DNA of 62,048 nt, counting the filler, from Dugesia japonica (lineage: Eukaryota), in NCBI GenBank assembly GCA_001938525.1. It is 5 parts of 5 records of this genome, joined end to end, with 100 filler letters (N's around TTAATTAATTAA, not from the genome) between each part and the next. Parts side by side here need not be neighbours in the genome. Positions count along the whole stretch, not along the records: positions 43,600 to 62,048 come from MQRL01568987.1; 4 more parts are not named here. One strand, 5' to 3'. The notes below the pieces were generated by a model. The model saw only the letters and a program-made list of their open reading frames with translations. It did no database searches and was not told the origin of the DNA. This document shows, piece by piece, positions 6,728 to 60,243 of the stretch. Each line of letters starts with the position of its first letter. Position 1 is the first letter of the stretch. The translations under genes and the position numbers were made by a program.

Positions 6728-6769
6728 GGCTCAAACGAGTCTTCCATAATTTCATCAGTTTCTCTGTTT

Positions 6770-7200
6770 AAATAATAATAATTATATTTAGTTTTCCAAT
6801 GTAGGTTTACTTGATAATCATATTCTTGTTTAGTTTAAAAAATATTACTATATAAATCATGATAAATAATATCCTTGTCAGTTTTGTTTAATTTAAAAAA
6901 TATTTAACAATCACTATTATTTCTTATCGAATTTTTATCAAGGTTAAAATAAGTTTCTGAAATATAAATTACATTATAATTGGAATAACGACCTCGAGTA
7001 AAATAATTTTTTTGTATTTCTTTATTTTTTATGATTTACCACATCATCGAAAATTATTAAGTTTTATTTATCCTTTCTGAGTTTATCACAAGGAATAATT
7101 TTATTTGGTTTATTGCTTAAAGTTACATTTATAGATTGTGGTTTTACTGTTGTCATTTTCTTGTCGATGAAAAATTTCAAAATTTGTGTTGGTGTTTCCC
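6770..7200 (-). pseudogene. A32/FtsK-like packaging ATPase, C-terminal half only
   Basis: Reverse strand gives NLIIFDDVV (Walker B) and FTRGRYSNYNVIYISETY. The Walker A half is deleted. Confidence 0.85.
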
Positions 7201-8440: not shown

Positions 8441-9300
8441 TAACGTAAGTTTTCTTACTTTATTACCTGGAATGCTTTGATGTTCTGCCACTACAGGTAA
8501 ATCATTGAGATAATCTTGTATTTCTGGTTGGATTATCATGTTTACCTCTAAAGTATATCCTTAGTATAATCGTCTTAGATTCTATTAATACTGATTCTAA
8601 ACCAGTATGTACCCATTTGAAATATTTAAATGGCCGTTTCAGGCTAAAATCTCATCTATATAGATTAGACTTTCACTAGTGGTGACATGGTGTTAATTAA
8701 TAAATGTCAATCCTCCTCTTACTATAATTTCTAAAAAGGTGTACATACAATTGTCGGTCTACAGTTGCATGGATTCATTCAATGACATGAAGGTTGATAA
8801 TTAACTCATATCTGATATGCTAAAGAAATTCAATGGCTCTAAGTTATTATGTAATAACGATTTAAACTTAAACTGTTATAAATAATCTGCCAATAAATAC
8901 ACATTCAGCTTTAAATAAATCATTATATAGCCCAGAAAATATTTGCAATTTGTTATTATCCATATTTTTAGTGTTTTCTCTTACGTTTTATTGATTTTAT
9001 CCAATCTAGGTAGAATTTATTTTGTTTCAACTGGACTTTGCAAACTGGTTGTATAATTATATGAGAATATTCCCGTAGATGCTGTTATTATTCTATCTTT
9101 AAATTCGTTTAACGAAAAAGGTGTCTTGTTTAAGGACTTTACCACTAAAGCAAGGGATGAGTTTATAAATTGATATGAAACTAAAAACTTTATTATAACC
9201 AATTTGATTTCATTTATTATCTACATACATGACTGAATTTTGTTTTATATTGATTTTCGTTATTTAAAGCACTCCATCAATTACTATTAAAATTCTTGAT
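8441..9300 (-). pseudogene. Second, heavily decayed pPolB (middle part) from another Polinton
   Basis: Fragments IKFLVSYQFINSSL, GIFSYNY, YLKLNVYLLAD, MYTFLEIIVRGG, LIYID and GYTLEVNMIIQPEIQDYLNDLP occur in the expected order. Confidence 0.75.
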
Positions 9301-9329: not shown

Positions 9330-10000
9330 TTACATGATCAGAAACTTTATATTTTTGGTTTTAATTGACTTTGGTTGTTTTCGTGATAACCATAATTTTA
9401 ATTGATTTTTTCTACTTACATCAATCTATCTTGCTCCATTCAATCCTTTATGAGATGAATGATTATAACTATGAATAAGTTTTAACAACAAATGCATCCA
9501 GGTTTTATTACTAGAATGCACAAAGTATTTCTTTGATGCATCTCTCAATGTACGATTAAAGTCCTCTACATGTATAACTTTATACTGTGAGGATACATTA
9601 TAATGTTTCATTTTTATATGAATAATACAATATATCACTTTTAACTTGTAAAATTAGTTACCAACATCCTTTTTAAATTATTTGGTGGCCATTTTCAAAC
9701 ATTGCCTTGATTGTTGGTTCTATATCATTAGATAATTTTTATTTGACTACAATAGCTCTAGCAACTCTACTAAATCATCAATACATGTCCAAGTACAACA
9801 TCAGACTTTACTTACAAGTCTTTTACAGTCTTGTCAACAACTTTTACTTGAGCATACATCATAGTATCATTTAAATACAAATAATCAGTTTGCAACCCAT
9901 TTAAAAAAAACTATATATCATTTGTACTTTCGAAAATTGTATTCATTGGAAACACATCTTTAAATACTCTGTATTCAATAACACCTTGAAGAGATGGATG
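9330..10000 (-). pseudogene. Second, decayed Polinton-type rve integrase
   Basis: VEDFNRTLRDASKKYF..WMHLLLKLIHSYNHSSHKGL. Confidence 0.75.
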
Positions 10001-13439: not shown

Positions 13440-13625
13440 ATGACCCCAGAGTTACAGAGAGTTCTCCACACTATCAAAAAACAGTGACGCACAGCTCGTC
13501 TAAAACAGTTAATTGATCACTTGCTGTTCCATCGGATTGTCGAGAACCCCGAAGAGACGTACCTGAGCTGTCTTGCCGAGATGTTCCCGTTGGAACCAGC
13601 TACCGGCGGGGGGCCCAAGGAGTAA
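13440..13625 (+). pseudogene. Unknown cassette ORF1, copy A (61 codons, internal TGA at codon 16)
   Basis: MTPELQRVLHTIKKQ*RTARLKQLIDHLLFHRIVENPEETYLSCLAEMFPL aligns without gaps to 49443-49625. Preceded by the acceptor ttgtag. Confidence 0.8.
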
Positions 13626-13842
13626 TCCAGAACCGGTTATCATGGGCCAGTATAAGTGTTCTATAATAAAGCACACTACTGAGTCATTGTTTTATCAATT
13701 AAACCTTATAAACTTTGTTCATTTGTTGAATTCGCCCCAAAGTAAAATTTCGTCATTCCTTTAATTACTCAGTGATCTCAGGGTTGCCTCCTGTTACATT
13801 GGTAGATTATTCACTAATTTAACTTTCCCGTAGACAGCTACT

Positions 13843-14178
13843 GTGGGTGTGATGCGAGATCATTCAAACCTGCAAGCCATAGACGTTGACAATGAGCGGG
13901 AATGGGATGCCGTAGAAAGAAACGCAAATTATGCTTGGCGTGGACCTAATCGAACCCAAGAGGTCCTACAGGTTGACTTGGTTGTAGACCCTATAACCGG
14001 AGAATTCACTAGAGTATGGCGAGACGGACCCACTTTTCTACCCGTATCGGCCTCACACTTGTCTCCTGATACTCGCATTCATATTGATATGGGCGATACT
14101 CTATGGGATTTACGAAATAGAGCTAGTGGCGGGTTGGCCGAAAATGATGTTCCGTTCACACCGAATATCTCTTCGTAA
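13843..14178 (+). pseudogene. Unknown cassette ORF2, copy A (5' end unclear)
   Basis: Shares DNEREW, GP.RTQEVL, GP..LPVS..HL and G.TLWDLRNRASGG with 49803-50213. Confidence 0.8.
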
Positions 14179-14499
14179 AACCAACATTTTCTCTTTGTTT
14201 AATTGATGTTCTCAATAATAAATTTTGTACCCTTTATTCCAGTTATCTTAAAAAAAATTTTTTAAACGAAATTTCAGTAAGAAGATTTTTTTTTGTGTCT
14301 GTTTTCGAGTTACTTTCTCTATGAAATTCATTTCACTTTTAGATATATGTTAATGAGTAATGTTGTATTGTAATGTTGTAATGTTGTAATGCGAAGATAA
14401 ACGAGTAGATAATTACAATGATGTAAAAGAAAAGGTTTACAAGTTCGTAAAAAAAGAATTGACTAGAAGCCAATCGGAGATTATCAATGATATAAATGA

Positions 14500-17290
14500 A
14501 GAAGATGATTGTAAAATTCTGACGATAGAAGAGATAAAGCGACAAGAAATAAGTTATGACAAGATGCAAGGTAGACCANGTATAACGGTTGAAATAAAAA
14601 AAAGTAAAAGTTGATTGCTTGTTAGACACTGGAGCAAGAGTTAATTTTATGAGTTTGAGAATATTGGAAAGATTGAAAGAAGTCAATATATTAAAAAGTA
14701 AAGACAATTTAACATGTGCCAATAATAGTCCACTTGAAATCGTCGATACGATAATGGTCGAAGTAAAATTCGAGAATAAAAGCGAAACAGTTAAATTCAT
14801 TGTGGTGAAACAGATACACCCAGATCTAATTGGAGGAATAGAATTACAGAAACAGTTTGGATTCCAACTACTGAGAGAGACTAAATGTGAGGATACTAAA
14901 ATGTATCTTTGTAATATAGAAGCAAAGTATAAACGCAGTACAACAGATGAATAGAGAGTACATAGAGCAATAAAAACATTGATTAACAAGCCAAATGAGA
15001 ATTTAGAGGATGTTATAAGGATTTATAAAGGGATATTCATGGCAGACAACTGGGATATCGGCAGAACAACAATGGCAGAACATCAAATAATCACAAATGG
15101 AGAACCAATAAAAACAAAACCATGGAGACAACCAATGTATTTAAAAAATAAGATCGAAGAAGCTATCAAAAATTTGTTTGATAATGGCATTATTAGGAAG
15201 TGCAATTCGCAATGGAACACTCCGTTAATATGAGTTTGGAAAAAAGAAAGGAAAGACGTTAGATTGTGTCTTGATTTTAGAAAACTGAATGCAATAACAG
15301 AAAGGCAAGCATTTCTGATGCCCAATGTAGAGGAAATACTAGACAATTTGAGTGGTGCAAGATATTTTAGTACTATTGATTTGGGNNNNNNNNNNNNNNN
15401 NNNNNNNNNNNNNNNNNNNNNNNNNNNNNNNNNNNNNNNNNNNNNNNNNNNNNNNNNNNNNNNNNNNNNNNNNNNNNNNNNNNNNNNNNNNNNNNNNNNN
15501 NNNNNNNNNNNNNNNNNNNNNNNNNNNNNNNNNNNNNNNNNNNNNNNNNNNNNNNNNNNNNNNNNNNNNNNNNNNNNNNNNNNNNNNNNNNNNNNNNNNN
15601 NNNNNNNNNNNNNNNNNNNNNNTTTTAAAAGAATTCAAGAATCAGGATTGAGAATTAATCCGGAAAAATGTCATTTATTGCGAGCAGAAGCCAAATGTTT
15701 AGGATATATCATATACAAGAATAGAGTTTGAACTGATCCAACAAAAATTGAAGCGATAAAAAATTTCGGAAGACCTAAATAAGTAAAGAGCTTCAGAAGC
15801 TTTTTGGGAATATGCAATCACTATAGACGGTTTATCAATAACTATTCAAAGAAAGCTAGAAGCTTGGATGAGCTGTGTGGAAGTAATAATACAAAACTTG
15901 TGTGGTTGGAAAGTTGTGATAAAGCTTTTAATGAGATGAAAGAGGCATTNNNNNNNNNNNNNNNNNNNNNNNNNNNNNNNNNNNNNNNNNNNNNNNNNNN
16001 NNNNNNNNNNNNNNNNNNNNNNNNNNNNNNNNNNNNNNNNNNNNNNNNNNNNNNNNNNNNNNNNNNNNNNNNNNNNNNNNNNNNNNNNNNNNNNNNNNAG
16101 CTCATGAAAAGGGATATTGTATAACAAGAAAAGAATTATTGGCCATTTACTATTTTTGTAACCATTTTAAACTTTATCTGTATGGAAAAATATTTTGGTG
16201 AGAACAGATCACAAGGCGATCGCATTTATGAAAAAGACAAACAAGCCAATTACTCCACAGTTTCAGACTTGGATGAATTTTCTTAGTAGCCTAGATATGG
16301 TATTGGAATTAAGACAAGGTTCGAAACACACGAATGCAGATATGCTNNNNNNNNNNNNNNNNNNNNNNNNNNNNNAATGCTTAACAGATCATGAGAATCC
16401 AAAGGAAGGAAAAATAAAGACAAGAACAATTAATGGTATATCAGGTTCAGATACAGATAAATGGAAAAGTAATGTAGAAGAAATTGAACAGATAAAGAAT
16501 GATATAAAAAATGGAACATGTAAAAGTTTCGATTAATAGAAGATATAATAAAAACAAAAGATGGCAAAATATGGATCCCATCAGAAAAGAAAATTCAAAT
16601 GGTAAAAGAAATCCATAAATTATTGGTGCTTGCATGCACGAAAAAATTCATAAATTATTTGAAAAATGAATATGATATGGAAGAGTTAAGAGAAACTGTG
16701 TCAAAAGTAATTAAANNNNNNNNNNNNNNNNNNNNNNNNNNNNNNNNNNNNNNNNNNNNNNNNNNTTAGAACAAAGGAGGAAACTATAAAATTAAAGGCT
16801 TATGAACCATTTGAGAGTATTTATATTGATATCTGTGGGTCTTTCCAAGAAACTGTAGGAAGATAAAGATAAATATGTGCCATAATAGATAAATTTAGCA
16901 GATACATTTGCTTAACAGCCCTAGTTAAACAAGATGAGGAATCAATAAAGAAAACAATTATGGATAAATGGATACTAAGATTTGGTGCCACAAAGGAGAT
17001 ACATGTAGATTATGGAAAGATCTTTGAATCAAAAGCCTTCAAGGAAATGACAGATTCAATGAATATAACGATTTGCTTCTCAAGTCAATATCATCATAAT
17101 ACAAACAGAATAGTAGAACGTCAATTCAGAACGATCAGAGATTACATCAATACAACATTAAAAAATAAAAAGAATAGAAATTGTGCAGAGTTAATACCAG
17201 AAATCGAATATACTCTAAATGCAACAAGCCAGAAGACTTTGGGCATAAGTCCAGCAGAAGTATAGGAATTGGTCAGAGGTATACAATAAA
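14500..17290 (+). mobile_element. Ty3/Gypsy pol (protease-RT-RNase H-integrase), pseudogenised and gapped
   Basis: LLDTGA, CLDFRKLN, YFSTIDL, GLRINPEKC, RTDHKA, IDICG, HVDYG and VERQFRT occur in PR-RT-RH-INT order. Confidence 0.93.
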
Positions 17291-17429
17291 CAAAATAATG
17301 TTTCATTATCTTCAGAAGGCCAAGAAGTAGAATGAAATGAGTAAATTGCCAGAAACGATTTATAGATTCATGAAAAAGGAAAGTTTCAATGAGGCAGAAG
17401 TTAACAAAGCAGAAGGGATAAGAACAATT

Positions 17430-17570
17430 CAACCAATTACTTATCGTATGATAAGATGCAAAGGAGACCTAGCATTTCAGTGATAATCAAAGATGAATAT
17501 TTTGATTGTATGTTAGATACGGGAGCACGAATAAATGTAATGATCATAAAAGGAATTAATAGACTCGGTT
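17430..17570 (+). mobile_element. Second Gypsy protease fragment from a related copy
   Basis: YFDCMLDTGARINVM resembles VDCLLDTGARVNFM near 14610. Confidence 0.75.
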
Positions 17571-27530: not shown

Positions 27531-27614
27531 TAAACTTTCGAAATCAACACCCATAAATAATGAACAAATAAATAACGATTTATACTAAATGGTTACTAAA
27601 ATAGTAAATAGCTA

Positions 27615-28420
27615 ATCATTTCTTTCTTGTTATACAATATCCTTTTTCATGAAATGACATTTTATGTGACCTATATGCAATGACTTTTTCTTAACCTCTT
27701 TCATCTATTTGCGATAGAACCGCTCCGATGTCATTGAAACTCTCATATGTATCTTTTTGAAATCTGGAAAGCTCAATATCGGTGCTTTTGTTAATGACTC
27801 TTTCATTTCATTAAAAGATTTATCACAATTTTAAGGCCACATAAGTTTTTTATTATTACTTCCACATAGTTCTTTCAAGCTTTTAGCTTTCTTTAAAGAG
27901 TTATTGATAAACCGTTTATAATTGCATATTCCCAAAAAGTTTCTTAAGTTCTTGACACATTTAGGTTTCCGAAATTTTGTATCGCTTCAATTTTTGTTGG
28001 ATCAGTTCGAACCCCATTCTTGTCTATGACATGTCCTAAAATTTGACTTCTTTTCGCAATAAATGACTTTTTTCCAGATTAATTCTCAATCTTGATTCTT
28101 GAATTCTTTTAAAAACTTGGTCAAAAATTCTTTATTGCTGCTATAAATTTTCTGAAAATATCAATATATCATCCATGTATACCTTTGTTCCTCTCAATTT
28201 TCCTAATACTTTTGTCATTAATTCTTGAAAAGTTCCAGGCAAAAGGCATTCTTGTGAAAAAATCCTGTCAATTTTTCGTAGAAAATACTGTTTTCTTTTG
28301 TGAATCTTTATGTAACGGAACTTGATAATAGGCATTACCCAAATCAATAGTACTAAAATATTTTGCACCACTCAAATTTTCTAGTATTTCCTCTACATAG
28401 GGCATAGGAAATGCTCGCTT
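27615..28420 (-). mobile_element. Gypsy RT-RNase H fragment, same family as 14500-17290
   Basis: Reverse complement matches DNA at 15310-15385 and 15620-16130. Contains PGTFQELM..VYMDDILIFS. Confidence 0.9.
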
Positions 28421-28599
28421 TACAATTTTAGATATTAGGTTCAGTTTATAATTTAGAAATTCCCTTTATATTTTAAATGATAATCTAAGAAAAAAGAGAA
28501 CCACTAATACAAAAGAATTCTTAGTAATGATAAGCAATCATATACTAGCTGGTTAACAAATAAAGAAATCTCGACTGTTTTTTTCTGTTTGTACTATTC

Positions 28600-29409: not shown

Positions 29410-31687
29410 ATGCTTGCAAAATGCGGTTTAGTTCGATTTAAGAACATTGGGTTACAATGTATTTTAATTAACAAAATTGAATTACTTTTAATGTAAAATA
29501 ATTCTTAGTTTTGAGGAAAGAAGTGACTAGTGCTTTAATAAATCCGAATAAAATTGAAGTATTTGTTGATGATATTCCTGTTCAATGTGATCCGGGGATG
29601 ACTGTATTACAAGCTTGTTCCATTGCAGGTGTAGAAATACCTAGGTTTTATTTAAAAATTTTTTAATTTAAAAAATATTTTAAATCTCCAATGAAAAGGT
29701 TCTGTTATCATGAGCGTCTATCAATTGCCGGAAATTGTAGAATGTGTTTAGTCGAAGTTGAAAAAAGTTTGAAACCTGTAGCGAGTTGTGCCGCTCCAGT
29801 TAATAAAGGCATGAGAATAAAAACGAATTCTCCAATGACTAAAAAAGCTCGAGAAGGTGTAATGGAATTTCTACTTGTAAATCATCCTTTAGATTGTCCA
29901 ATATGTGATCAAGGTGGTGAATGTGATTTACAAGTAATTTATAAATATATGCCTGTCTTAAATTATTTTAAAATTGTTATTTTATTAGGACCAATCAATG
30001 ATTTTTGGGAGTGATCGATCAAGATTTGTCGATAATTCGTATTTAGGAAAAAGGTATTTTTTAATATTAATTATTTTCATTATTATTATTACTAGAGCTG
30101 TCGAAGATAAAAACATAGGACCATTAGTGAAAACTATTATGACGAGGTGTATCCATTGTACGAGATGTATAAGGTTTATTAGTAATTTTATGTTTTCGTT
30201 ATTATAGTTTATAAATTAAGATTTGCTAGTGAAGTTGCCGGTGTGAATGATTTAGGAACAACTGGTAGAGGCAGTGACATGCAGGTAAATGATTATTTGT
30301 AAATTCACTTTTAAAAAACATTAAATTGCAGAAAGTTTACTGATTTAATTAAATTCTTTCACCAAAAACTTAAACAATTAACACAACTAATCACAACCGC
30401 TCAAATAGTCTTATTTTATTTATGTTTCATTAATCAAATTGACAAATTTATATTGTTCTAATAGCTTTAATTATTTGCCATAAAATCATTTTTATTGCTG
30501 ATATTATTTCCATATTGTTGAATTTAAAATAATTAAAATTAAATTAAATTATTAAAACTATTAAATTTGTTTATTTCTTTTTTATTTTTTGTGTGAAAAA
30601 AGATTTTTGATATAACGTTTTGATCATAAAAGTTATTACAAATAGCAAGTAAAAGTGGTAAACGTAATTTCAATAAAAAAATTATGTATTAATAAATATT
30701 AAAAATAACCTGTCATTTCCTCATATAAAAATTAAAATTTAGCTACTGTTTTCGCAGCTAAAAATATTTCCATTATTAAATAATTAAATTAATTTATTTA
30801 CAATATTGTGACCCTGTAATTTTTATTTGGCCCCAAAGTGATTTGAATTTGATAATCTTAATGAATAAAATCTTATATATTTCTTGATTTTCTAAAAAAC
30901 TGTTATATATATTAAAATGTTTTATAACAGCCACGACCCTGATAAAGCCAGTCGGGTAGTTTTTGTAAATCGTGAAATATAAATGTTTTATTGAGTTACG
31001 ACTGAGCTGCAATTTTATAGCAATTTTAAACATTACATAATTTATATAATTGAATAATGAAAGATTTTTTGGAATGTTTTATTTTTGATAGTTTTCGATG
31101 TGATATTTTGAATTTCTTTGTAAATACTCCTCAATTATTAACAATTATTGTCAAATATTTTTATACAAAATTTTAGGTAAATATAGAAATAGATTTAAAC
31201 TTATTAATAAACTTATGATAAACTTCAATATTAAAAACCAATTATTTATCAAGGTATTTTACATCCTTGTAATTAAGTTTCTGTTATTTCTTCAGGTTGG
31301 AACATATATTGAAAAGCTGTTTCGAAGTGAGCTATCTGGAAATGTTATCGATCTTTGTCCTGTTGGTGCTTTAACATCTAAACCTTATGCTTTTACGGCT
31401 AGACCATGGGAAACTAAAACAGTTAATAGTATTGATGTCATGGACGCTGTTGGTTCCAATATTGTAATTTCTATGCGAACTAATGAAGTTATGAGAATTA
31501 TTCCAAGACTCAATGAAGTAAAATAGATTTTTATTTCCTGTTATAACGCTAATAATATATTTAAATAATTAAGGAGATTAACGAAGAGTGGATAAATGAT
31601 AAATCTCGATTTTCTTATGATGGTCTTAAAAGGCAACGATTGTTAAATCCTATGGCAAAAGATCCAAGTACTAATATTTTGACTCCT
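29410..31687 (+). CDS. NDUFS1: NADH:ubiquinone oxidoreductase 75 kDa Fe-S subunit, 5' part. Exons: 29410-29458, 29509-29644, 29699-29933, 29989-30053, 30096-30173, 30221-30284, 31296-31517, 31574-31687. No further exon was found before the scaffold end.
   Basis: The spliced frame gives [72 protein letters not shown] and [12 protein letters not shown]. All introns are GT-AG with consistent phase. Confidence 0.97.
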
Positions 31688-32917: not shown

Positions 32918-34482
32918 TATTAATTTTATTTGTTTAATCAACTTCAATCAACTAAAATAAGACTTTTGATTCAATACTTTATTTAAAATACAAATAATTG
33001 CTTCTTTCAAAACTTGCCTTTCCGAATTTATATTTTTAAATAATAATAAACTTAAACAAATTTATTATATTTATTCAAAAATATATTTTACAAATATAAA
33101 ACTTTCGAATTAAAAATAATTTAAAAATAAAACAATAAAATCTAATTATAAAACTTTTGTAAATAAATATTTTTATAAAGCTTTACAATTAAATTTCAAA
33201 TTTACATTAAAACATTTAAACTAATAAACATCGATTTAATAAAAAACCTTATATAATTAAATTTTAAAAATATTTACGAATTTTTAAAATAACCTAACAT
33301 CCCCCGTTTTTAGAAATTTTTTAATTTTTTCAACGTTTAGTTCTAACATCTTCAATATTTCGACTATTTGGTTTTTGTTCAAAGCTTCATCTTCTTGTTC
33401 TTCATAAAACTGGGTCGTCTTCTCATCGAAATAGTATATTTTATCAACTTTGCATAGATCATCTTTTTCATCATATACTTTATTAACTTATCTTGAATTT
33501 TGTTGCCTTTTGTCATCTCGATCGTTTGTACAATGATTCTGTTTTCACTTTTTCGTCTTTCAGGCTCTCGAACATTCTGGTAACTTGTTTGTTTATTTAT
33601 ATTTGTATAACAATCTTCAGTACGGTGTCCTTTTCTCATACACCTTAAACAACTGACTTTATTACAGTCCCGTCTTAATTGCTGTTCTGATCCGCATGCA
33701 TAACATTTCTTTACTGGGCAATTCCTGCTAACGTGACCTATATTGTTACAGGTCCAACACGTAATTTCTCGTCTTATTGTATTCATAATCTCATCTGTTT
33801 TCTCCTTGTGCTCAATATCTTTTTATACTTATTCTGGTAATTTCTCTTTTGCATCTTTATCGATCTGTACTATATTGACATTTTTCATTTTCATTTCTTC
33901 TTTTAAGTTGTCACAGTCTTTTATTGTCTGAAATATCTCTGCTTTATCTTTTTTTCCAGACCTGATTTTAAGCTTTATCTTATTATCATCGCAACTGTTT
34001 ATTATTAATTCCTTTGTTAAAGATTCTTTGTTCCATTTGTAAGACATTATTCTATCTACCATTTTCTCAATCCTTTTTTTATATATACTGACATAATCTC
34101 CATTCCTTCGGTAACTTAGAGCTTCTTCTATGTCCTTAATCATTGATGATGGCTTTAAGAAAGCCTTTCTCTATTTTTATTCATATCCTAGAGCTTCATT
34201 TTCGTTTTCACAAATTCCCTGTAGTTCTTTATCAAGCGAAGCTACTACCAATTCGCTTCTACAACTTGTCAATATTCCGGTCACATCATAATATTTTGTA
34301 ATCTTTTTAATAAACATTTCAACATTTTTGTTGAACCTTTCTTGAAGATTCCAGGAAATATTGCCTCGTTAAGCAGATCCATTGATACCTTGGTCGCCAT
34401 GTTAGTTTTATTTGTTTTCTTCACATTAATCGACTAACACAAGACTTTTGATTCAATACTTTATTTAAAATACAAATAATTC
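32918..34482 (-). mobile_element. Gag-only non-autonomous LTR retrotransposon
   Basis: The 5' LTR end (..CTAACA, 34400-34482, cut by the spacer) is followed by PBS TGGCGACC (34392-34399). Then come gag with three zinc-knuckle-like motifs, PPT AAAAACGGGGGA (33300-33311) and a 3' LTR (33299-32918) starting TGTTAG. Both LTRs share aagacttttgattcaatactttatttaaaatacaaataatt. Confidence 0.85.
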
Positions 34483-43899: not shown

Positions 43900-45615
43900 A
43901 CATTATTCCCATGGATTGGAATTTCGTCCTGATAAATGCGTTTATCTACACCTACCTCAAACCAACTTCACCAGCAAAATCTCTATAAATGATAAGAAAA
44001 TTAAAAAATTAGCTATAAAAGAATTNNNNNNNNNNNNNNNNNNNNNNNNNNNNNNNNNNNNNNNNNNNNNNNNNNGTCGGAGATAGAAATGACCAAAGTC
44101 CTTATGAAACGATACAACAAGTCATTGATGATTTAACAAAAATTGCTGAATCAGACCTACTAGGATGGCAGAAGCTAAAGGCATACAAAGTATTCCTACA
44201 TTCTAGACTCGCATTTGCATTCTGAACGCGCGAAATCAAAATTAGCGCCCTTAGCAATCCTCAGAATAATCCAAATGTCAGTAACAACAATATCAGTAAA
44301 GCTCGTTTCCAACTTAGACGTATATTAAATCTTCCGAAACGATCTGAAATTCTATACTTCTACAATTCAACCGAAAATGGAGGAGCTGCTTGCGTCGATC
44401 AGTTGGATGAATATCAAACTCAATGTGTTGTGCAATATTTTAAATTCCTTACCTCAAGATGCATGTATACAAACAAAATAAATATAGAATCCTTGTGTCT
44501 CGCAGCAAGTCAAAGAATAAACAAACTAAACCCATCTCTAAATGAATGCCTCGAATGGATAAATGGGAAAATACATTGAGAAACTCAAATGCAAAGAAAA
44601 CGCACTTTCAGCGAATAAGAACTGCAATACAGTTTTTCAAAAGAATTTATGATACAGATATATAGTTCAATGTACTTAATAAAGAAATAGTCCTTTAAAT
44701 GACAAATAAGACAAGGCAAACCTATGTTATTAATCGTACCTCTCGTAAAGAAATTTCAAATATCATTCACAACGTACTATTTGATTCATACGCTGAAAAT
44801 GGAAAAAAGCAAAGTAAGCAACTTGATATTCACAGCTATTCAAATGAGCCCTATTATAAATAAAATGATTTTCAAAAGTGACCTCAATGAATTTCGGTGG
44901 AATTTCATTCACAGTGCCCGAACAAACTCTCTATCAATACGTGAAAGATCCTTTTATGAAATATAAACTATCGGCGCTGTTTTACTGAAAATGAATCTTT
45001 ATCACATGTTCTTCAAAAATGCAAAATGAATCAGCCAATAGCAACTGAAAGGCATAATGCTTGCCTTGATATTATTGTCAGCAAACTTAAGACCTCAAAT
45101 GCTATTGTTGAGGTTAATAGAATAAATAAATATATTTCGGATTCTTTGGAAAAAGTGGATATTACAGTAACTAATATTGAAAAAAAACAATATATTTAAT
45201 AGATGTCATATGCCCAATAGACTCCAAAAAGAATTTTGAAGAGTGTAACAAAAGAAATTGAGAAAAATATGATCTACTAAAAAATAAAGTAAAAATAGCG
45301 AAGCCTGACTTTGAAGTAGAATTACATACTTGCATAGTTGAATAACTTGGCTCAATTCCAGCCGCAACCATCCGAATTCTGGAAAAAATTATCGAAAACA
45401 AAAATATAATTAAAAGAATATTAAAAGATTGCTCCAGATCAAATATAGTCTATTCAACAGAAGTATGGAAGTTCCGCAAAGCTGGTGTTAGAAACAACAA
45501 AATAACTTCTAATATTGAAGAATAGTATTTAAAGAATTGAAGAAACGTGTGTGGGTTCCATGTAGAACCAAAAACAAGACTATTTGTTTATTCAAACTTG
45601 TTATTTTAATAAATT
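43900..45615 (+). mobile_element. 3' part of a non-LTR retrotransposon with restriction-like endonuclease (NeSL/R5/Utopia/R2-type), decayed
   Basis: GLEFRPDKC (end of RT), FYNSTENGG, RRC..ENESLSHVLQKC..RHN (CCHC knuckle), KVDI..YLIDVICP.D (PD-D/ExK-like), LGS, and AATAAA near 45608. Confidence 0.8.
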
Positions 45616-49442: not shown

Positions 49443-49625
49443 ATGGCCGATCAGTTAACAAGAATGTTGGCATTAGTTCAGTTTGAAAGAGGGAAATCCC
49501 GAAATAGGCAGCTGTTAATTCATATAGTTTCACACGGTGTAACCGAACATCCCGACGAAACCGATCTCCAGTGTTTCGCCGAGATGTTCCCGCTCCAGAA
49601 CCACGTTGATCTCGATGAGGAGTGA
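49443..49625 (+). CDS. Unknown cassette ORF1, copy B (60 aa, intact)
   Basis: Aligns without gaps to copies A and C. Conserved E.P.ET.L.C..EMF motif and acidic tail. Acceptor ttcag upstream. Confidence 0.8.
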   Translation: MADQLTRMLALVQFERGKSRNRQLLIHIVSHGVTEHPDETDLQCFAEMFPLQNHVDLDEE

Positions 49626-49802
49626 TCCTCCTAGACTAAAAACCGCTGCTGGCTAGATTTTTGATTGAATAAAATTTAATTAACCTCACTTCTTATCTGT
49701 TGTTTTAAAAAATTGGCTCGTAGGGATTAACGATTATTAAAATTATTCTTTTATTTTAATTTTTATGTGTTTAAAAGTACTCTTTATTGTAGAACTGACA
49801 AA

Positions 49803-50213
49803 ATAGACTACGTTTGGGAACTGCTATGGGACCGTCGCACGGGGCGCACCATATTTAAAAGATATAGAAACCCGCATGATCGCAATGCAGGTATTTTAAT
49901 GGATTATTCTAATCTGTCCAGCGAAGATGCAGATAACGAAAGAGAATGGGCCGCCGCAGAGCACCAAGCTTTTTATCAATGGTTTGGTCCCGATCGCACT
50001 CAAGAAGTGTTACATCGGGCTACCCCCCTCGCTCCAATAGCTAACCAAACAATTAGTCAATGGCAGGGTGGTCCGTCGTTATTGCCTGTGTCGATCGCCC
50101 ACCTTCCCAGAAATACTAGATTCTCTCTAGACCTTGGGAATACTTTGTGGGATCTACGCAATCGAGCTAGTGGCGGTGCTCTAGAAAATACAGAACCCTC
50201 CTCAGGATCATAA
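49803..50213 (+). CDS. Unknown cassette ORF2, copy B (start codon appears decayed to ATA)
   Basis: IDYVWE aligns to MESVWE of copy C. Acceptor ttgtag at 49787-49792. Confidence 0.8.
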   Translation: MDYVWELLWDRRTGRTIFKRYRNPHDRNAGILMDYSNLSSEDADNEREWAAAEHQAFYQWFGPDRTQEVLHRATPLAPIANQTISQWQGGPSLLPVSIAHLPRNTRFSLDLGNTLWDLRNRASGGALENTEPSSGS

Positions 50214-50439: not shown

Positions 50440-50799
50440 TGCATTCTTCATTGAATCGCGTATCGGCTCCTACAAAAAAGATGCGAGATGATAGTGAGAA
50501 CCGCGAGATGACATGAGACCTGTATTGACTCGCTAAGCGTAAGTGGGAGGTGAATACATCTAACGCTAATAGTAAGGTAAGCCGATACCGAAAAAAATGT
50601 GTAGCTTTCCGAAAAGAAAGTTGAGGCTTCCCATGCATAAGAAAGGGTGTGGAATGGGCAAGTGGAGTCACTGGTTGACATGATCCGGTCTTACCAAGAC
50701 CGCGAAAATAAACTGGTGAGTGATGTAATGAAATTGAAGGTTTCCATGCCCCTTGAACCTTTGATGGTCGAGAAAGGCACTCAGACCCCTAAGAGTTAA
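50440..50799 (+). pseudogene. Unknown cassette ORF3, copy B (ends in KGTQT motif)
   Basis: Begins ttttag|TG CAT. Reads HSSLNR..APTK..SKVSRYRKKCV..DRENKLV..PLEPLMVEKGTQT with stops and one frameshift. Homologous to 58987-59345. Confidence 0.8.
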
Positions 50800-50936: not shown

Positions 50937-51319
50937 TGCCTCGTACCCGTTTCCCGAACAATCTTCGTCGGTGCCATCACATTATGCGCTGACTCCTTAT
51001 CGAAAGGCATTTGAAGCGTAAGATAGACCGAACACTTCTTAAACAATTATCACAGAAGGACAGATTGATTAAAAAATTAGATATAATCGTAAAAAAGCAG
51101 AACGACCTTGTTATGCAAACGAAGGCCTTAGAAGCCGAAAATAAACAGTTATTGCAGAGGAAGATCGAGTTCTTAAAGCAATTTATTGACGATATATCCC
51201 GACAAATAGGCAACCCAACTGTAACACAATGGGATGACGATAATGACATCGAAGCCTTCAACTTTTTGGTGACAGAACCAAACCAGTGGTTTGATCCAGG
51301 GGCGCTGGATTTGCTTTAA
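50937..51319 (+). pseudogene. Unknown cassette ORF4, copy B (basic region, coiled coil, acidic tail)
   Basis: Begins ttttag|TG CCT. Reads PRTRFPNNLRRCHHIMR*LLIERHLKRK..LIKKLD..TKALEAENKQLLQRKIEFLK..SRQIGNP. Homologous to 58545-58866. Confidence 0.8.
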
Positions 51320-51711
51320 ATATTTTCGTAAAATAAAATATCAAAAATCAAAATTGTAATCTTTTTCTTTTGATGATAACAATAAGGGAAAAATCATAGA
51401 ACCCAAAAATAAAGGTTTATCGACGTGTACCTTCCATTAAGAGTAAGGTCAACCACCATAAACTGAAAACCTACCACAGGGACGGTAAGGTAAATTCTTG
51501 AAAGGGTTCCCTTGAGGGCTATTTTTTCCCCAGCCACCTTTTCGTGTCACTCGACTCAGGTGGGACCCCAACAATTGTAAGCCAGGTCGTTTTCGAAGCC
51601 AGCTCGTTTTACAACCTTTAAAAATGTGGCCCGTAAATTTTGTGAGGAGTGAGGAAAAAATCTTCTCCTTCATCGTTGGACATGTGGCACGTTAATTTTT
51701 TACTTAATAAA

Positions 51712-52053
51712 ATGGCTTTAGAATTTGAAGATTAACATGTGAAAATATTGAGGAAAATTTAAAATTCGCAAGTAATTTTGATTCTCAATTATTTTTAAAA
51801 TCACAAAAGCTTTGTACACTAGCAAAATTTAAAAGAAATAAAATCAAGAAATCCTAATAAAAAAGATTTTTTAATTGCGGCCGAAATTGGAATAACAACT
51901 ATGTCTTTAAATAAAATTTTGCGAGAATTAAATGTAAAACCAGAAAGAAAAAAATATCATAGATTAAAATATTATTATAATGCAAAAACTCGGGAATATG
52001 AAAAAGATCAATATGGTAATTATTTTTTTAATGTAAAAACAAAAATTCATTAA
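51712..52053 (+). pseudogene. Small helix-turn-helix-like ORF, frameshifted
   Basis: EIKSRNPNKKDFLIAAEIGITTMSLNKILRELNV fits an HTH pattern. Confidence 0.5.
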
Positions 52054-52604
52054 AATAAAAGCTTTGATCAAAATGTTGGATTTTTTTTATTGAAATTTGA
52101 TAACAATTCGATATTTCGACCTTGTCTTCGTCAGGAATTGACTTTTTAATTTATNNNNNNNNNNNNNNNNNNNNNNNNNNNNNNNNNNNNNNNNNNNNNN
52201 NNNNGAAATAATTTATTTTTATTAAATTTTAATTGGTTAATTTTAATTCTTATTTTATATTTAATTATTTAATTTTTATTATTGCAAATTATATTTATTT
52301 TAGGATTGTTTTCTTTGATTAGTATTTCTTCATGTTTTTTCTGTGTAGTGTAGAAATGTAGCTTGTTCCAAGTGTTTTCCATGAAATGTGATGTTGTTCT
52401 GGTGAAATTTTATGTTTGTGTTGAAAGTGTTTGAATACTTCACTTTCTTTTTGTTTCAAATGTTCCTTAAAAACAAAAAGTTTGAATTAATTCCTCCAGC
52501 TAAAATAAAAATAACTTTAACTGAAAAAAGAAATGAAATAGCAAATCAAGAATAGCCAATTGAAAAGCCTAAAAATATTTCCAAGAAAAAAAATACTCGT
52601 GTAG

Positions 52605-53204
52605 GTGGCGCAGTTGAAGAGGAAATTGAAAAATCTTTCGAGTCGCATAAATAGTGCTATCAAGTTGCTTAAATTTATTAATTATAAAAATGATGATTTA
52701 ATGGAAATAATTAAACAAGATCCAACATTTAAAAGTAAATTAATTGAAGATTATTCTACCGTTGTAAAATCATCATTAAAAGAAAAAGAAGTTTTGATAA
52801 AAACAATATTTCCACAATATAAATTACTAGGTGAATCATTAGCTTTAGCAGGAGAAACTATTTATGATTTATCAAAAGAGAATGATGTTTTAAAAACCGA
52901 GTTGGAAAAAGCAGAGGAATTTGATCAAGAAAAGATTGAGAAATTAATTACAAAGAAAAAAACTCAAGAAGATGAAAATAAAAATAAAATAATATTAAAT
53001 GATTTAAGAAGAACAAACATGAAAACCAAACAATTGCTTTAGAAAATGGCGCGAGAAATAGAAACAAAAGAGTTGAATAATTTTATAAACAATACAACTA
53101 AATTAAATAAAAAAGTCGAACACCAGAAAAGTATAATTTTATTTTTATCAGTGATAATTTTCATGGGATTACTTTTTATGTTAATAAAATGGATACTAAA
53201 TTAA
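52605..53204 (+). pseudogene. Coiled-coil protein with C-terminal transmembrane helix (one internal TAG)
   Basis: Reading through the TAG at 53040 the frame continues to SIILFLSVIIFMGLLFMLIKWILN*, overlapping the capsid start. Confidence 0.55.
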
Positions 53205-54513
53205 ATTTAGATAATAATATTGACTTTTCACATGTTTCAATAAAAAATGATGTTTTAAAAATTTTACCTTCATCCGGTTCAATTAATAATCTAATGGCGT
53301 CGGGAGATATCGTTTTTCAATCTTTACAATCAACAAACCCATTAGACATTTGCAATGCGATGCTGTATTTTAAAATTGAAATCACAATTCCAGATAAAGA
53401 AAAGAAAAAGATAAATAACTTTAGAAAATAATTTCTTTCCAAGTATACTTAAATCCATGAGATTAACCTTGAGTTCAACAGATGTAGAAACAATAAATGA
53501 TCCGGGAGTAATATCAACAATGTTAAATTTAATTACAACTACAGAAACTTGAAAAAAAGAATATGGACAAATGTCAGGATGGATGCCAGATACAAATAAA
53601 GAAGATACAGAAGTAAAATATTAGAATTCTAATACTGGATATTATAAGAGAAGGAAATTATACCTCAACAAGAAATTTGAAGGTTATTTTTTATTGAGAA
53701 ATTTATTTGGTTTTATGCAAAATTATAATAGACTTTTATACAACACAATGATTCAATTTACTTGTAATACACAAATGAATGATAATTTATTATTTTATGG
53801 AGAAAAAGATGCAACAGCGGCTTTAAAATCAATAACCATTGAATTACGCATACCAGAATTTAGATAATTACCAAAATCAGAATTATTTTTATTAGAAAGA
53901 ATTGCTACAAATAAACCAATAAAAGTTTCATACTTAAATCGAATAACTGCAAAAACAAATTTAGATTCTGGAGGATATTGTTCAATAAAAATAAGTAGCT
54001 TAGCATACAAACCAAGATATATTTTTATTGGAATAAAAGATAATGAAATTTCATTTCAAAAGAATAATAATTTATTTATACAAAAATTATCCAAGAAAGT
54101 TAAACAAGGAAATCCAGAAGCGGATGTAATAAAAGATTATTACATAAAAAGCATACAGACACAATTAAACAATACTTTTTATCCGATTAATGAATGTAAG
54201 TTTAATATGGAAAATAATGAAATGATTTTTCCTTATTTAAATTATACAAAATGTTGTCACGATTTTTTTTAACAGAATCACAGGTATCACTTTTAGATTT
54301 TGGAAACCTAAACCCAATATTTAGTTTTGATGTAAGTGCGCAAGATGATAAATTAAATATTAGCAATGTTGATGTAAGACTTTACACATTACAAAAGATT
54401 AAGATTTTAGAGGAACTGTTTATTGGTGTATCCTTGAAGAAAAACATGTAGAAATGAAATTACCAAATAGTAAAATTGTTATGGTGGAAAATGTGAGGGG
54501 ACTTAACCTTTAA
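53189..54513 (+). pseudogene. Major capsid protein (double jelly-roll, hexon-like), frameshifted
   Basis: ILPSSGSINNL..GDIVF, LENNFFPSIL.SMRL..VETINDPGVISTMLNLIT, GWMPDT, LFGFMQNY, KPRYIFIG and PIFSFDVSAQ are motifs of Maverick/adintovirus MCP. Confidence 0.82.
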
Positions 54514-54543
54514 TGTTAAAATTTTAAAATTTATAAATAAAAA

Positions 54544-55790
54544 ATGGCAAGTCTAATATTTAAATGTGAAAACTGTAATAAAATTTTATCAAGGAACAAT
54601 AAATCGAGACATTATAAAAATTGTAAGCAAACCGGAGGAGATCTCCAATCTTCTAATATTACATCAGCGTTATTAAAACCTTTTACTTTGGAAAAATATC
54701 CTGGTGAGAGACATTTGTTTAAACATAATTACACCGGACCGGGAACTAGATTAGATTTAAGATTAGATGAAAATAATAATTCTTCACCCGGAGAAGAACC
54801 AGTTAATAAAGTTGATGAAGTCGCATTAAAACATGACATTGCTTATCATTCAACCGATATTAGAGATTGTTATCTTGCAGATGTAAATTTAATTCACGAT
54901 TTAAATAATATTGAAAATCCAACTATTGGAGAAAAATTACAAAGAGCTTTAGTTAAATTAGTTATGAAGGGAAAGATAATGTTAGGACAAGGCGTTTTAG
55001 CACATGAGCTTCACTACGAATAGAGAAAACCAAAACATTTTCTAAAAGTAACAGTACATGATAAAGATGAAACATGGTCGGCAGATTTAATTTTTCATGG
55101 AATAGAAAGAAGAGGTAAAATGGTAATTTTAACAGTAATCGATCTCTATACTCGTTTTGCATTTTTAGAAATTTCAGGAGATAAAACAGGACCACAAGTT
55201 AGAAATACTTTTGAAAAAATTATTGGAAAAATAATAGAATGCCGAATAACTTGTGGGTGGATAAAGGAAAAGAATTTTATAATAAATCATTTCAAAATTT
55301 TTGCATTAAAAATAAAATTAATTTATACTCTACTGAAAATGAAGGTAAGGCAGTTGTTATAGAAAGATTTAACCGAACATTTAAAAATAAGTTGTTTAAA
55401 CATTTTACTACTGTTGGGAATCAAGATATTACGGATTCTTTATTACAAGAAATTGTAAACACTTACAACAACACAGTTCATTCATCAATAAAAACCACAC
55501 CACAACTTGCGAAAATAAATCCAGAAAATATTAAAGATGAAATTGAAAAACATAATACTGAATATGATAATCTAAATGAAAAGTGTAAATTTAAAATCGG
55601 TGATCGAGTAAGAATGTTTAAGGTAAATAAAACATTAGCAAAAAGTTATACAGTTAAATTGTCAAAGAAAATTTATTTAGTAACAAGAATTTACAATACA
55701 AGACAATGAACTTTTCAAATTAGTAATTTAAATGGTGAAAAAATTCCTGGGAGATTTAATACTAATGAATTACAGAAAACAGCATTTTAA
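54544..55790 (+). pseudogene. Zinc finger / PLA2 / rve integrase fusion (TAG at 55021, frameshift near 55235)
   Basis: CENCNK..SRHYKNC, HNYTGPGT, DEVALKHDIAY, then the same frame gives HELHYE*RKPK..WSADL..VIDLYTRFAF, followed by WVDKGKEFYN..IERFNRT. Confidence 0.9.
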
Positions 55791-55908
55791 CCAGCGCTCA
55801 TAAATTACTTTCATTAAAAATCTTAAAATGTAAAGTCCTAAAATGTTAAAGTGTAAAAATATAACACTTAATAGGTTGCTGCGCAACCTTAAATTAATTT
55901 TATAGAAA

Positions 55909-56648
55909 ATGAATGAATTAATATGGAGAAAAAATACAACACTATTTAATAATAAAGTTTTACCAAATAATTTTAGATTATTAATGATTGGATCTTCAGG
56001 TTGTGTGGAAAATGTTATATTAATGAAAATGTTACTAACACCAGATTTTTTAGATTACAATGTTTTAATTTTTTTATTCAACAACAATCAATCAATTTGA
56101 AATACAATTGGTTTATATAGGTTTTGAAAATGGATTAACTAAACAAGAAATAATTTCAATGTTTGAAAATCAAAATATGGTTCCTGATTCTTACAGTACA
56201 CCACATCAGGTTTTTCAATTTTATTTAGATAAAAAATTAGTTAAAAAACCAAGATCAATAAATGTTACACTAAGTAATATTTCTTGTGATAAACTTTTGA
56301 GGGATAAAAAAAATTTAATTATTTTTGATGATGTTGTTAATGATAAAAATCAAGAGATACAGAAAAGTTATTTTACTCACGGTCGTCATTCAAATTGTAA
56401 TGTAATTTACATTTCCCAAACTTATTGCCATTTAGATAAAAATTCTATAAAGGAATTATTCAAATTGTTATATTTTTTTCAAACTAAATAAAACAGATAG
56501 AGATAATGTTTATCATGAATTATTTTCAAATATTTTTAGTAATAAGATGGAATATGATTATGAAACTAATTTACACTGGAAAACTAAATATAACTATTTT
56601 TATTTAAATAAAGAAACTGAAGAAATGTTGGATGATTTATTTACATAA
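55909..56648 (+). pseudogene. A32/FtsK-like packaging ATPase
   Basis: RLLMIGSSGC (damaged Walker A), LIIFDDVV (Walker B) and HGRHSNCNVIYISQ. Confidence 0.88.
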
Positions 56649-56689
56649 AAATTTTTAAATAGTATCTACGATAGTTTTATAATTATCCA

Positions 56690-57385
56690 TAATTTTACAA
56701 AATGAAATTTTACAAAATACCACTAAATCTTATTATATTTTTATTTATATAACTTTTTTTTATAATTTATTCCAATTGATTGTAAATACATTTCCATGTT
56801 TATTTTATCTTTTAATTTATTTTTCATTGCTTTAAATATTGAACCTAAATATGCAGAACTAATTAATGTCATTTTTTCATGATCACCATGCCACCGTTGA
56901 GTGCTTTCAGTTAAAACCTCTAAACTTTGAAAAGTAAAATTATAACGAGCCTTTTTAAAGGCTTGAATATTAAATTCAGTTTGTGGTTGTGAATTATATT
57001 CCAATTTAAATTTTTCTAAATCAAATTTATTTTTGATAACATTTTTATGTTTTTCTTCAAACTCTGTAACAATATCTCTTTCAGGAATATTTACATCAAC
57101 TATATCACTCTCGTCAATAGCATAAAACACCTCTTCATCTTCAGAATCCTCTTCCTCTGCTTTTATTATTTCCTCTACATTTAGTGGGGTATATCTCGAC
57201 TTGAATAATTTTTTATAACTTTTATCTATATAATCTTCAGTAGTTAATTCATCAAGAAATTTTTCATCACTAATTAATTTTTTATCATCTTTTTCTGCAA
57301 AACGTAGTTTACAATCATCACATAATATTTTTCTAAATTAATAACGTCGTTTAATATTTTTTTTACTTGACTAAAAACACTCCAT
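56690..57385 (-). pseudogene. Maverick ORF of unknown function, homologue of 5762-6727
   Basis: Same position and orientation as in copy 1. Shares CxxC and YL.S.GINYK. Confidence 0.65.
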
Positions 57386-57437
57386 TTTTACTAGTATTTT
57401 TTTAATCATAATATTATTTTTTTGACCCACCCCGAGG

Positions 57438-57495
57438 GACCCGACTCATAAAAGATTCGACTCATAAAGGACCCGACTCATAGGGACCCGGCTCG
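57438..57495. repeat. About 16-bp tandem repeat (gacccgactcataaa) in the divergent intergenic region
   Basis: Three full units and one partial. Same position as the 25-bp repeat of copy 1. Confidence 0.85.
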
Positions 57496-57560
57496 TTTTA
57501 TGATCCTCTTTAAACTTTTGTTCCCCAAAATTTTTTTGCCTCAAATTTTTCCTTTAAAAA

Positions 57561-58010
57561 ATGGAAAAGCCTACAGAGGATAAATTGAAAAAAATAATAA
57601 ATTCAAACAAGTGTAAATCAGTAAAAATTTATGACAAAAATTCTTGGATTAGTAAAAAAGTAAAAGAGGAAACAAAGAAAGCCCACGAAGGTGGTTTTGC
57701 ATTTTTAGCAGCAATCCCCGCAGTTATTGCAGGCCTGGCATCTGCACCGGCGTAGCCAGTGGCATTGCCAGTACCGTAATAAATTCACGGGCCGCTCAAG
57801 TTCAGGGTCTTGAAAAATGAAAAAAGAAAAAGAAATTCAAATTCTAAACTTGGGCTCTGGACTTTATTTATATCCTTATCAAGGTTCTGCAATTCATAAA
57901 TATTGAAAAATTACTAGGAACCTAGGTTTAAAAAATATTACACGAGGTTTTAAAAATGGGGTAGAAATAAAAGTAAAACGTAATGGATTATATCTAAGGC
58001 CTTATAAATA
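57561..58010 (+). pseudogene. Putative virion core protein, homologue of 5016-5556
   Basis: MEKPTEDKLKK..HEGGFAFLAAIP, LGSGLYLYPYQGS and GLYLRPY. Confidence 0.6.
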
Positions 58011-58021
58011 TCCTTTGGAAA

Positions 58022-58545
58022 ATGACGACGAGAACGGAGAAGAGGATCGAGGAACTGAAACAATTGATTAAAGCTCGAGGAAATTATAATATTTTTTACT
58101 GGGAAAATTGTTGAATCGAGAAAATTAAAAGCGAAGTTAACAACTCTACAGTGGCCAACTATTAGAGCTATTGAAAAAATTACAATTAAATCCAACTCAA
58201 TAGATGTAAGAGATTTAACAAATTTTTTTTCAAGTGAAAAAAAAATTCCATTTACTCCTGAATACTCTATTAATAATGTAAATGCTAGTGGAATGTTAAC
58301 TGAAACAATTATTCCTCGATATTCTGGATTAAATGTTATTGGTTTAGCTGGTGCGAAAATGTTTATGAAAATAACTTTGAAGGAAAATAAAATTCATTTA
58401 TTTGAAGAATATGGGGAAATAAATTATTATTAAAATCAGAAATTATTCCATTCACTGATTATTTAGAATAATTTTGGGGAATCAAGATGGCTTGGAAACA
58501 CGTGAAGATATTAGGACTTATTTATATAAATTAATTTCTCCTCTC
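58022..58545 (+). pseudogene. Conserved Maverick ORF, homologue of 4023-5010, truncated
   Basis: FTGKIVESRKL..LQWPTIRAIEKI and ILGNQDGLETREDI. Homology stops abruptly near 58545. Confidence 0.7.
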
Positions 58546-58866
58546 ACAACCAACAGCCGTCATCATCGTTCGAATGGATCCAAGCTGGGTTCCCAATCTG
58601 TCGGGAAAGATCAGCGATATACAGTTTTAAGAAATCTATTTTTCTCAACAGTTACTTCTTATTCTCTACCTCTAGGGCTTTGGTTTATATTGCTAAGTTG
58701 TTTTGCTTACAAACTACCAAATCCAATTTTTTTATGAGTTGATTCCTCTGGGCAAGGTGCTTAAGAAGAGCTTGTTCTGTTTTACGCTTTAAGTGACGCT
58801 CTAATAATAGACGGCGCAGGATACGGTGGAACCTCCTCAAACTAGTCGGAAACACGATTCGAGGCA
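58545..58866 (-). pseudogene. Unknown cassette ORF4, copy C
   Basis: Begins ctttag|TG CCT. Reads PRIVFPTSLRRFHRILRRLLLERHLKRK..LIKKLD..TKALEVENKK*LLRKIDFLK..SRQIGNP. Confidence 0.8.
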
Positions 58867-58986: not shown

Positions 58987-59345
58987 TTAGGAGCGGCTCG
59001 TCTGAGTACCTTTGTCGATCATTAGCGGCTCGAGTGGGATTTTCTCCCGGAGAATGAAGATATCGTTAACTAGTTTATTTTCTCGGTCATGGCTGGACCA
59101 ATTAATCTTTGAAAAAGATTCCACTTGTTTTTTCCAAGTGCGCTCCTGTAAATGGGAGGCCTCGGCTTCCTTTTTAAAGTGAACACACTTTTTCTTATAA
59201 CGGAGGACTTTACTATGGGCCGCGGCTACCTCAGCTTCTCATCGGCGTTTTGCTTACCGGTATAAATCCCAGGTGAGTTCGAGGTCCTCAATGGTATCAC
59301 GGATTTGTTTAGTAGGAGCTGGGGGGCGATTTAAGGAGGAATGCA
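58987..59345 (-). pseudogene. Unknown cassette ORF3, copy C
   Basis: Begins ttttcag|TG CAT. Reads HSSLNRPPAPTK..SKVLRYKKKCV..DRENKLV..PLEPLMIDKGTQTSRS*. Confidence 0.8.
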
Positions 59346-59572: not shown

Positions 59573-59926
59573 CTAAGGAGGAATTGATACATCCGGTACG
59601 GGTGCAGTATTTTCGGAGTCTTCACTGCCCGTGGGCTCTCTTATCCCCCAGAGTAGGTTAGTAATAAAAGCCTGTACCGCGGGAGCTGGAGTTAGAGTGA
59701 GAGACTGGTAACGAAAAGAAGTCACCAGGGTACGATCAGGGCCTGACTAAGCCTGGTAACATTGTCGCTCACCAAAATCTCTGATGCGCTCGACGATTGA
59801 CTCGACGGGAGGCAAATTTGACCTGTCAACTAAGATCCCGGCGTCGCGGTTGTGTCGATTATGGTGCCGCCGGAAAATGACTCGACGACTTCTTCAGTCT
59901 ATGACCCTTTCCCATACGGATTCCAT
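59573..59926 (-). pseudogene. Unknown cassette ORF2, copy C
   Basis: Begins ttttag|aaATG. Reads MESVWERVID*RSRRVIFRRHHNRHNRDAGILVDRSNL..GPDRT. Confidence 0.75.
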
Positions 59927-60060
59927 TTCTAAAATATAAAAAAAAATTTAACACACATAACATAGCAGCAAAATGTAATGGATAATTTATTTAAAATAGC
60001 TAATATACATAAGGAAAGGTTTTTATTCAGTGTCAGGCGAAGTCTCAATAAAACCAAAAG

Positions 60061-60243
60061 TCATTCCTCATCCAGGTCTACTTTCGTGTTCAAAAGAAAC
60101 ATCTCAGTGAAACAGCAAAGATCGGTCTCATCCGGATGTTCGATCTCTCCTTTTGTCAGCAAATGAGCCAACAACTGCTTGGATCGGCTAATTTGTCACC
60201 GCCTCTTTATCCATTGCAGGACACGATATAATTCTGTCGGTAT
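60061..60243 (-). pseudogene. Unknown cassette ORF1, copy C (ATA start, TGA at codon 16)
   Basis: IPTELYRVLQWIKRR*QISRSKQLLAHLLTKGEIEHPDETDLCCFTEMFLLNTKVDLDEE*. Confidence 0.8.

Follow-up and report, generated by a model that had tools for sequence, protein, structure and literature searches.

Does a small open reading frame (ORF) in the genome of Dugesia japonica (GCA_001938525.1) end in a binding site for the dynein light chain LC8, and what would LC8 have done there? Recruitment of LC8 is familiar from RNA viruses and from some large DNA viruses. The window analyzed here is a gapped stretch of 62,048 nucleotides with 27.5% GC. It contains a multi-copy cassette of four GC-rich ORFs, and ORF3 is the third of these. 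In copy B, on the plus strand, ORF3 ends EPLMVEKGTQTPKS-stop, with KGTQT at 50773–50787 and the stop codon ending at 50799; in copy C, on the minus strand, it ends EPLMIDKGTQTSRS-stop, with KGTQT at 59013–58999. Both KGTQT sites end three residues ahead of the stop codon, and both copies carry the TQT anchor. An earlier, sequence-only reading had placed KGTQT at the C-terminus of ORF3 in both copies, and its coordinates were correct. The full LC8-type site, positions −5 to +2, is VEKGTQTP in copy B (50767–50790, +; translation and model interface residues) and IDKGTQTS in copy C (58996–59019, −; translation and B/C comparison).

The cassette extends over 49.4–51.3 kb in copy B (+) and 60.2–58.55 kb in copy C (−), with a partial copy A at 13.4–14.2 kb. 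In copy B, ORF1 (49443–49625, +) encodes 60 aa with an LxCxxE motif and then an acidic end, and matches no family; ORF2 (49793–50213, +) matches no family and yielded no confident fold (predicted pLDDT 34); ORF3 (50440–50799, +) begins right after a T-rich AG; and ORF4 (50937–51319, +) is helical and coiled-coil-like, with one in-frame stop. In copy C, ORF1 (60061–60243, −) contains one stop, ORF2 (59573–59928, −) two stops and an internal gap relative to B, and ORF4 (58550–58866, −) two stops, its likeness to B ending near 58560; ORF3 lies at 58987–59345 (−). Copy A (13440–14178, +) contains only ORF1 together with a 3′ portion of ORF2 and is followed by a Ty3/gypsy-like pol region; ORF3 is absent from it. 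Residue identities were 30/56 for ORF1 (B/C), 53/100 for ORF2 (B/A) and 59/91 for ORF4 (B/C), with a coding pattern like that of ORF3. ORF1 retains E-x-P-x-ET-x-L-x-C-x-x-EMF-x-L in all three copies (49443–49625, 60061–60243 and 13440–13625); its LxCxxE recalls the Rb-binding LxCxE without matching it, and its contig depth was the highest in the cassette.

In a DNA run containing this sequence, 4163 contigs aligned on 48.8–52.1 kb, with depth high over the ORFs and low over the spacers, and the cassette is therefore a multi-copy family. In the 3′-most third of ORF3 the summed depth was 8177, compared with 1397–1886 further 5′ in the ORF and 372 in the spacer that follows it; the 3′ bin cannot single out the motif, because a conserved DRENKLV block shares the bin and summed depth is not copy number.

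A T-rich tract ending in AG precedes nine of the ten cassette ORF starts in the three copies (49429, 49792, 50439 and 50936; 59929, 59346 and 58867; 13436 and 13833), the exception being ORF1 of copy C. ORF3 and ORF4 both start AG-TGC in copies B and C, which would fit a hypothesis in which 3′ exons are used alternatively and spliced to a single common upstream exon. We keep splicing at that level since the tracts are only modestly above background in this AT-rich window and no splice joint was seen in RNA. No RNA run was listed as containing cassette sequence, and in three runs with the same species label 14, 287 and 30 reads aligned, nearly all as partial fits and none across a splice joint, which gives no evidence either way on expression.

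Comparison of copies B and C demonstrated that ORF3 is a genuine coding gene that was under past selection and is now a pseudogene in both. The two translations share 64 of 107 residues, with pS at 0.88, where synonymous sites are near saturation, and pN at 0.27 (computed over two separate segments); in the 3′ segment, the two shifted frames gave pN/pS of 1.15 and 1.25. No ATG is common to the ORF3 starts, and the likeness between the copies begins abruptly at the T-rich AG. Copy B carries in-frame stops at 50514, 50526 and 50638 and a frameshift between about 50601 and 50619, and copy C carries in-frame stops at 59256 and 59241; the lesions look independent because the stops fall at different codons. 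No intact ORF3 copy was found, and the protein cannot be made from copy B or copy C. With copies B and C both reduced to pseudogenes, any LC8 claim can concern only the once-active element.

The sequence-only reading had further called the motif conserved. KGTQT is indeed present in both copies, but there are only two of them, they are 60% identical throughout, and the motif block is unremarkable against that background. Across the 11 codons EPLMxxKGTQT, nine residues are shared and the remaining two differ only within their residue class (V/I and E/D); pN/pS is 0.09 across the 11 codons ending in TQT against 0.31 overall, over very few sites. The best 12-residue window of ORF3 has 10 of 12 residues identical, as expected at 60% identity (permutation p = 0.92, two copies), and five given ORF3 residues would all be identical by chance with a probability of 0.08. 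The motif block is thus not better conserved than the remainder of ORF3 in these two copies. In six-frame translation, the window contains ten TQT tripeptides, and KxTQT occurs in two of the ten, those of copies B and C, which are homologous and count as one event, not two. In 100,000 shuffles of the 431 residues of cassette B, KxTQT arose anywhere in one cassette copy in 0.4%, [DES][KR]xTQT in 0.2% and bare TQT in 5.8%, percentages that apply to the LC8-type motif alone, a motif picked after the fact.

The region upstream of the motif had been described as helical-looking, and structure prediction supports this. When the 83-residue stop-free portion of copy C was modeled, residues 2–66 were predicted to form a helix (about 59235–59041) and residues 67–83, which carry the motif, to have no regular structure; tail pLDDT was 56–59 in the last blocks, and a model built on two sequences deserves modest weight. 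The motif would sit in a predicted disordered tail, as expected of an LC8 client, with 13 residues between the predicted helix end and the motif Gln. In the best heptad register, 53–57% of a/d positions in the helix are hydrophobic. The published rules for LC8 sites ask for a polar residue at −4, a large basic one at −3, a non-aromatic one at −2 and no internal proline, with P, D or E preferred at +2 (PMC6607443). Applied by eye, VEKGTQTP of copy B agrees with every position rule, and IDKGTQTS of copy C with all except +2, where Ser is neither preferred nor hydrophobic. TQT peptides nevertheless often fail to bind LC8, and the published predictor is reported as 78% accurate (PMC6607443). In Swallow and in rabies P, the LC8 site is preceded, at a distance of about 15 residues, by a dimer domain, and nearby self-association domains are described as common among LC8 clients (PMC12017986).

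We then modeled a 2:2 complex of two copies of the stop-free 52 residues of copy B and two LC8 chains, using a stand-in LC8 from a metagenome locus that is identical over 89 residues to PDB 1rhw. The complex scored 0.79 against 0.25 for the best of three controls, none of which was an anchor mutant. The model runs shared at least 96% of contacts, with partner pLDDT of at least 77, and LC8 was touched only by partner residues 40–49 (PLMVEKGTQT), the contacted LC8 residues including 59–70 and 34–40 among others; the motif is predicted to occupy the canonical LC8 groove. In a microbial calibration, 51 of 78 solved pairs and 2 of 108 mismatched pairs attained the score mark, as did 39 of 65 and 2 of 126, respectively, among eukaryotic pairs; the calibration does not extend to peptides or host-pathogen pairs. 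For an AlphaFold protocol, false-positive rates of 5.5–28%, mostly from motif-like sequences, have been reported (PMC12057147). Because many LC8–peptide complexes are already solved, a model pass indicates likeness to LC8 complexes and not binding, and the pass could be memory of those structures. Modeling with LC8, suggested as a check by the sequence-only reading, turned out in its favor to that extent.

ORF3 and its neighbors yielded no relatives in the searches made. Word-index searches for ORF3 homologs confirmed 0 of 3 candidates near its length and 0 of 786 at longer length with a three-row alignment. A full HMMER scan gave a single match at E = 1.7e-4, to an unrelated tandem-repeat protein. 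In metagenome contigs, 0 of 598 ORF3 pattern matches were confirmed; the ESM Atlas gave no match at 0.9 or above, and the ORF3 LC8 pattern was absent from the viral contigs searched. For ORF2, 0 of 8 candidate homologs were confirmed, and none appeared in viral contigs or the Atlas. Pfam searches on seven cassette pieces gave no match at E 0.01 (0/7) and, at E 1, sub-threshold matches only, several to coiled-coil families; PHROGs returned nothing significant for the cassette pieces.

Two degraded gene sets of the Maverick/adintovirus type, at about 0–8.6 kb and 52.6–58.6 kb, align together in the window. Beside copy C lies a degraded virion-integrase module (53111–58563, +) with double-jelly-roll capsid pieces, a PLA2-like gene, an rve integrase and an A32-type ATPase. 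Pfam Pox_A32 was above the cut-off (E = 6e-7), and the broken rve (E = 3e-4 to 5e-4) and double-jelly-roll-like (E = 4e-4) pieces were below it. The PLA2-like domain PF08398 was found in both elements (E = 6e-9 and 3e-8), and searches with this ORF turned up neither a viral contig nor a phage record related to it; a PLA2X gene is described as typical of Alpha adintovirus virion modules (PMC8502044). In the left element (32–8560), the PLA2-like, integrase and ATPase genes are about 60% identical in protein sequence to those on the right, and a weak Erv1/Alr match lies at 5648–5950. The ORFs at 32–799 and 2962–3393 look like PolB and adenain by motif alone; neither had a Pfam, PHROGs or PDB match. 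The penton-like, adenain-like and PolB-like genes of the left element are missing beside copy C, where no PolB-like or adenain-like gene was found. At 58459–58563, a Maverick ORF homologous to 4026–4661 and, on the other strand, ORF4 of cassette C both break off near 58560, a breakpoint that looks like a deletion junction. Very high-copy repeats (51353–51574 and 52019–52100; summed depth 83,000–208,000) lie between cassette B and the Maverick genes, and between these repeats is a 76-residue open frame (51823–52050) that appears helix-turn-helix-like by eye.

Other remnants are scattered through the window. An integrase fragment at 9429–9653 (−) is only 27–28% identical to both Maverick integrases; the stretches 14340–17500, 27587–28421 and 33382–34170 contain pieces of Ty3/gypsy-like protease and integrase, an inverted fragment related to these and an ORF with a gag-like zinc knuckle. 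Host exons for the mitochondrial complex I 75 kDa subunit (NDUFS1), whose closest PDB entries are animal, lie amid repeats at 29667–31523. Pieces at 44226–45196 resemble the zinc-finger/endonuclease C-terminus of a non-LTR retrotransposon and had no Pfam match.

Taken together, the position rules, the helix-then-tail layout and the complex model argue that LC8 truly bound ORF3 in the active element, with a probability of about 0.7; the absence of excess motif conservation and of an intact copy weighs against the proposed LC8 site. The main competing explanation is that the motif is incidental, having originated by chance and being shared because the whole of ORF3 was under selection, with no meaningful LC8 binding. 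Such an origin agrees with the unremarkable conservation of the block, with the single event behind the two homologous copies, with the frequent failure of anchor-bearing peptides to bind (PMC6607443) and with the motif having been chosen after inspection; it sits poorly with the rarity of a strict-type site in the shuffles (0.2%), the location of the site in a flexible tail directly behind a predicted helix, the preferred residue class retained by both substitutions upstream of K, and the passing LC8 model, and we regard it as unlikely. It is about as unlikely that the cassette is a separate repeated unit among Maverick remnants, a case in which the LC8 reading would be unchanged. The GC contrast between cassette ORFs (41–51%) and Maverick core genes (25–26%) speaks for a separate unit, as do the cut-off Maverick ORF that copy C abuts, the connection of copies A and B to core genes only across N gaps, and the lack of a terminal inverted repeat around 49–60 kb; the comparison of 45–52 kb with 57–62 kb, in degraded copies and gapped sequence, returned only the cassette likeness itself. 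Against it, each of the three cassette copies is at most about 5 kb away from Maverick core genes, copy C joins them without a gap on the strand and side of the PolB-like gene of the other element, accessory ORFs are typically upstream of PolB (PMC8502044), and the cassette has no transposase-like ORF. We infer that the cassette likely belongs to the Maverick/adintovirus element, a likely but not proven assignment because of the GC contrast and because copy B, set apart from the core genes by a 50-N gap and high-copy repeats, is linked to them only across that gap.

With binding as the preferred reading, ORF3 would be a small accessory protein encoded by a mobile cassette, most likely of an animal Maverick/adintovirus, in which a long amphipathic helix is followed by a short linker and, at the very end, a single LC8 site. 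A host LC8 dimer would bind two ORF3 tails, each as an added beta-strand, and the bound LC8 would stabilize a parallel ORF3 coiled-coil dimer, as for Swallow. Basic patches in the helix would be compatible with a nuclear role of that dimer. We infer the coiled coil and this clamp role from the layout and from analogy, and consider the clamp somewhat more probable than its absence. The sequence-only reading had offered dimerization or transport, and dimerization is the half that fits better, because in solved LC8 complexes a single client is present twice, an arrangement that argues against a cargo-adaptor role (PMC12017986). ORF3–LC8 could instead have linked the DNA–protein complex of the element, or its virion, to dynein for nuclear transport. 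LC8 sites in viruses have been interpreted in this way, and a rabies P peptide raised microtubule-dependent nuclear accumulation of GFP (PMC5643739); an integrating DNA virus must presumably reach the nucleus. Beyond the paired clients, however, the motor is reported to hold only 12% of LC8 (PMC5643739), and nothing places ORF3, which lies outside the virion module, in the virion, so that we consider transport improbable. Still more improbable is a decoy role, in which ORF3 competed with host LC8 clients, for example those for mobile-element silencing. In Drosophila, LC8 dimerizes Panoramix via TQT/V sites and is required for piRNA-guided silencing (PMC7919418), and ORF3 is barely more than a helix and an LC8-type site; yet the Panoramix–LC8 complex is specific to Diptera (PMC7919418), one site on a small protein would probably be a weak sink for an abundant hub, and the RNA runs gave no evidence of expression. 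The same low rating applies to the more specific proposal that the cassette is an alternatively spliced accessory cassette of animal Mavericks, in which ORF3 would be a counter-silencing gene interfering with LC8 clients including LC8-dependent piRNA silencing.

The ORF3 site resembles those of known viral KxTQT clients and would be a further example of a known viral strategy. It has the same [D/E]K-x-TQT site as rabies and Mokola P, HSV-1 UL9 and Ebola VP35 (PMC5643739), and in rabies P the dimer domain likewise lies about 15 residues upstream of the site (PMC12017986). Unlike these clients, ORF3 has no detectable sequence homology to them, carries the site as its very last C-terminal element, not followed by any domain, and resides in an endogenous DNA element, with LC8 binding predicted only. 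Drosophila Swallow similarly has a helix or coiled coil with one LC8 site close behind (PMC12017986), but Swallow is a host protein with measured affinities, whereas ORF3 is a mobile-element pseudogene of 120 residues with a putative coiled coil. The neighboring genes have Pfam matches to a PLA2-like domain, A32 ATPase, rve integrase and double jelly roll, as in Alpha-type adintoviruses and Mavericks (PMC8502044), although both elements in the window are degraded and the cassette ORFs match no family. Like the cassette, adintovirus Oncoid genes are small motif-bearing ORFs on the PolB side. Oncoid genes are defined by LxCxE, CR1 or paired CxxC motifs (PMC8502044); none of the 11 cassette pieces has an LxCxE, a CR1 or a CxxC motif, and ORF1 has LxCxxE in all three copies, so the cassette was rejected as Oncoid.

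The main text of PMC8502044 makes no mention of LC8 or dynein, and no report of LC8 or dynein recruitment was found in the Maverick/Polinton/adintovirus literature, in a search made largely outside subscription papers. In one Polinton paper that mentions LC8, the term appears as a strain name. An LC8-type site in a Maverick-associated gene is thus apparently not yet described for Mavericks or adintoviruses, and the genome maps of PMC8502044 and bioRxiv 2024.03.25.586562 may already list the cassette ORFs under neutral names. The importance of the site is limited by the commonness of the TQT motif and by the dead state of the cassette copies. Maverick/adintovirus accessory genes are largely without assigned function; if LC8 binding is confirmed, one of them would gain a defined partner in the host and an inexpensive assay.
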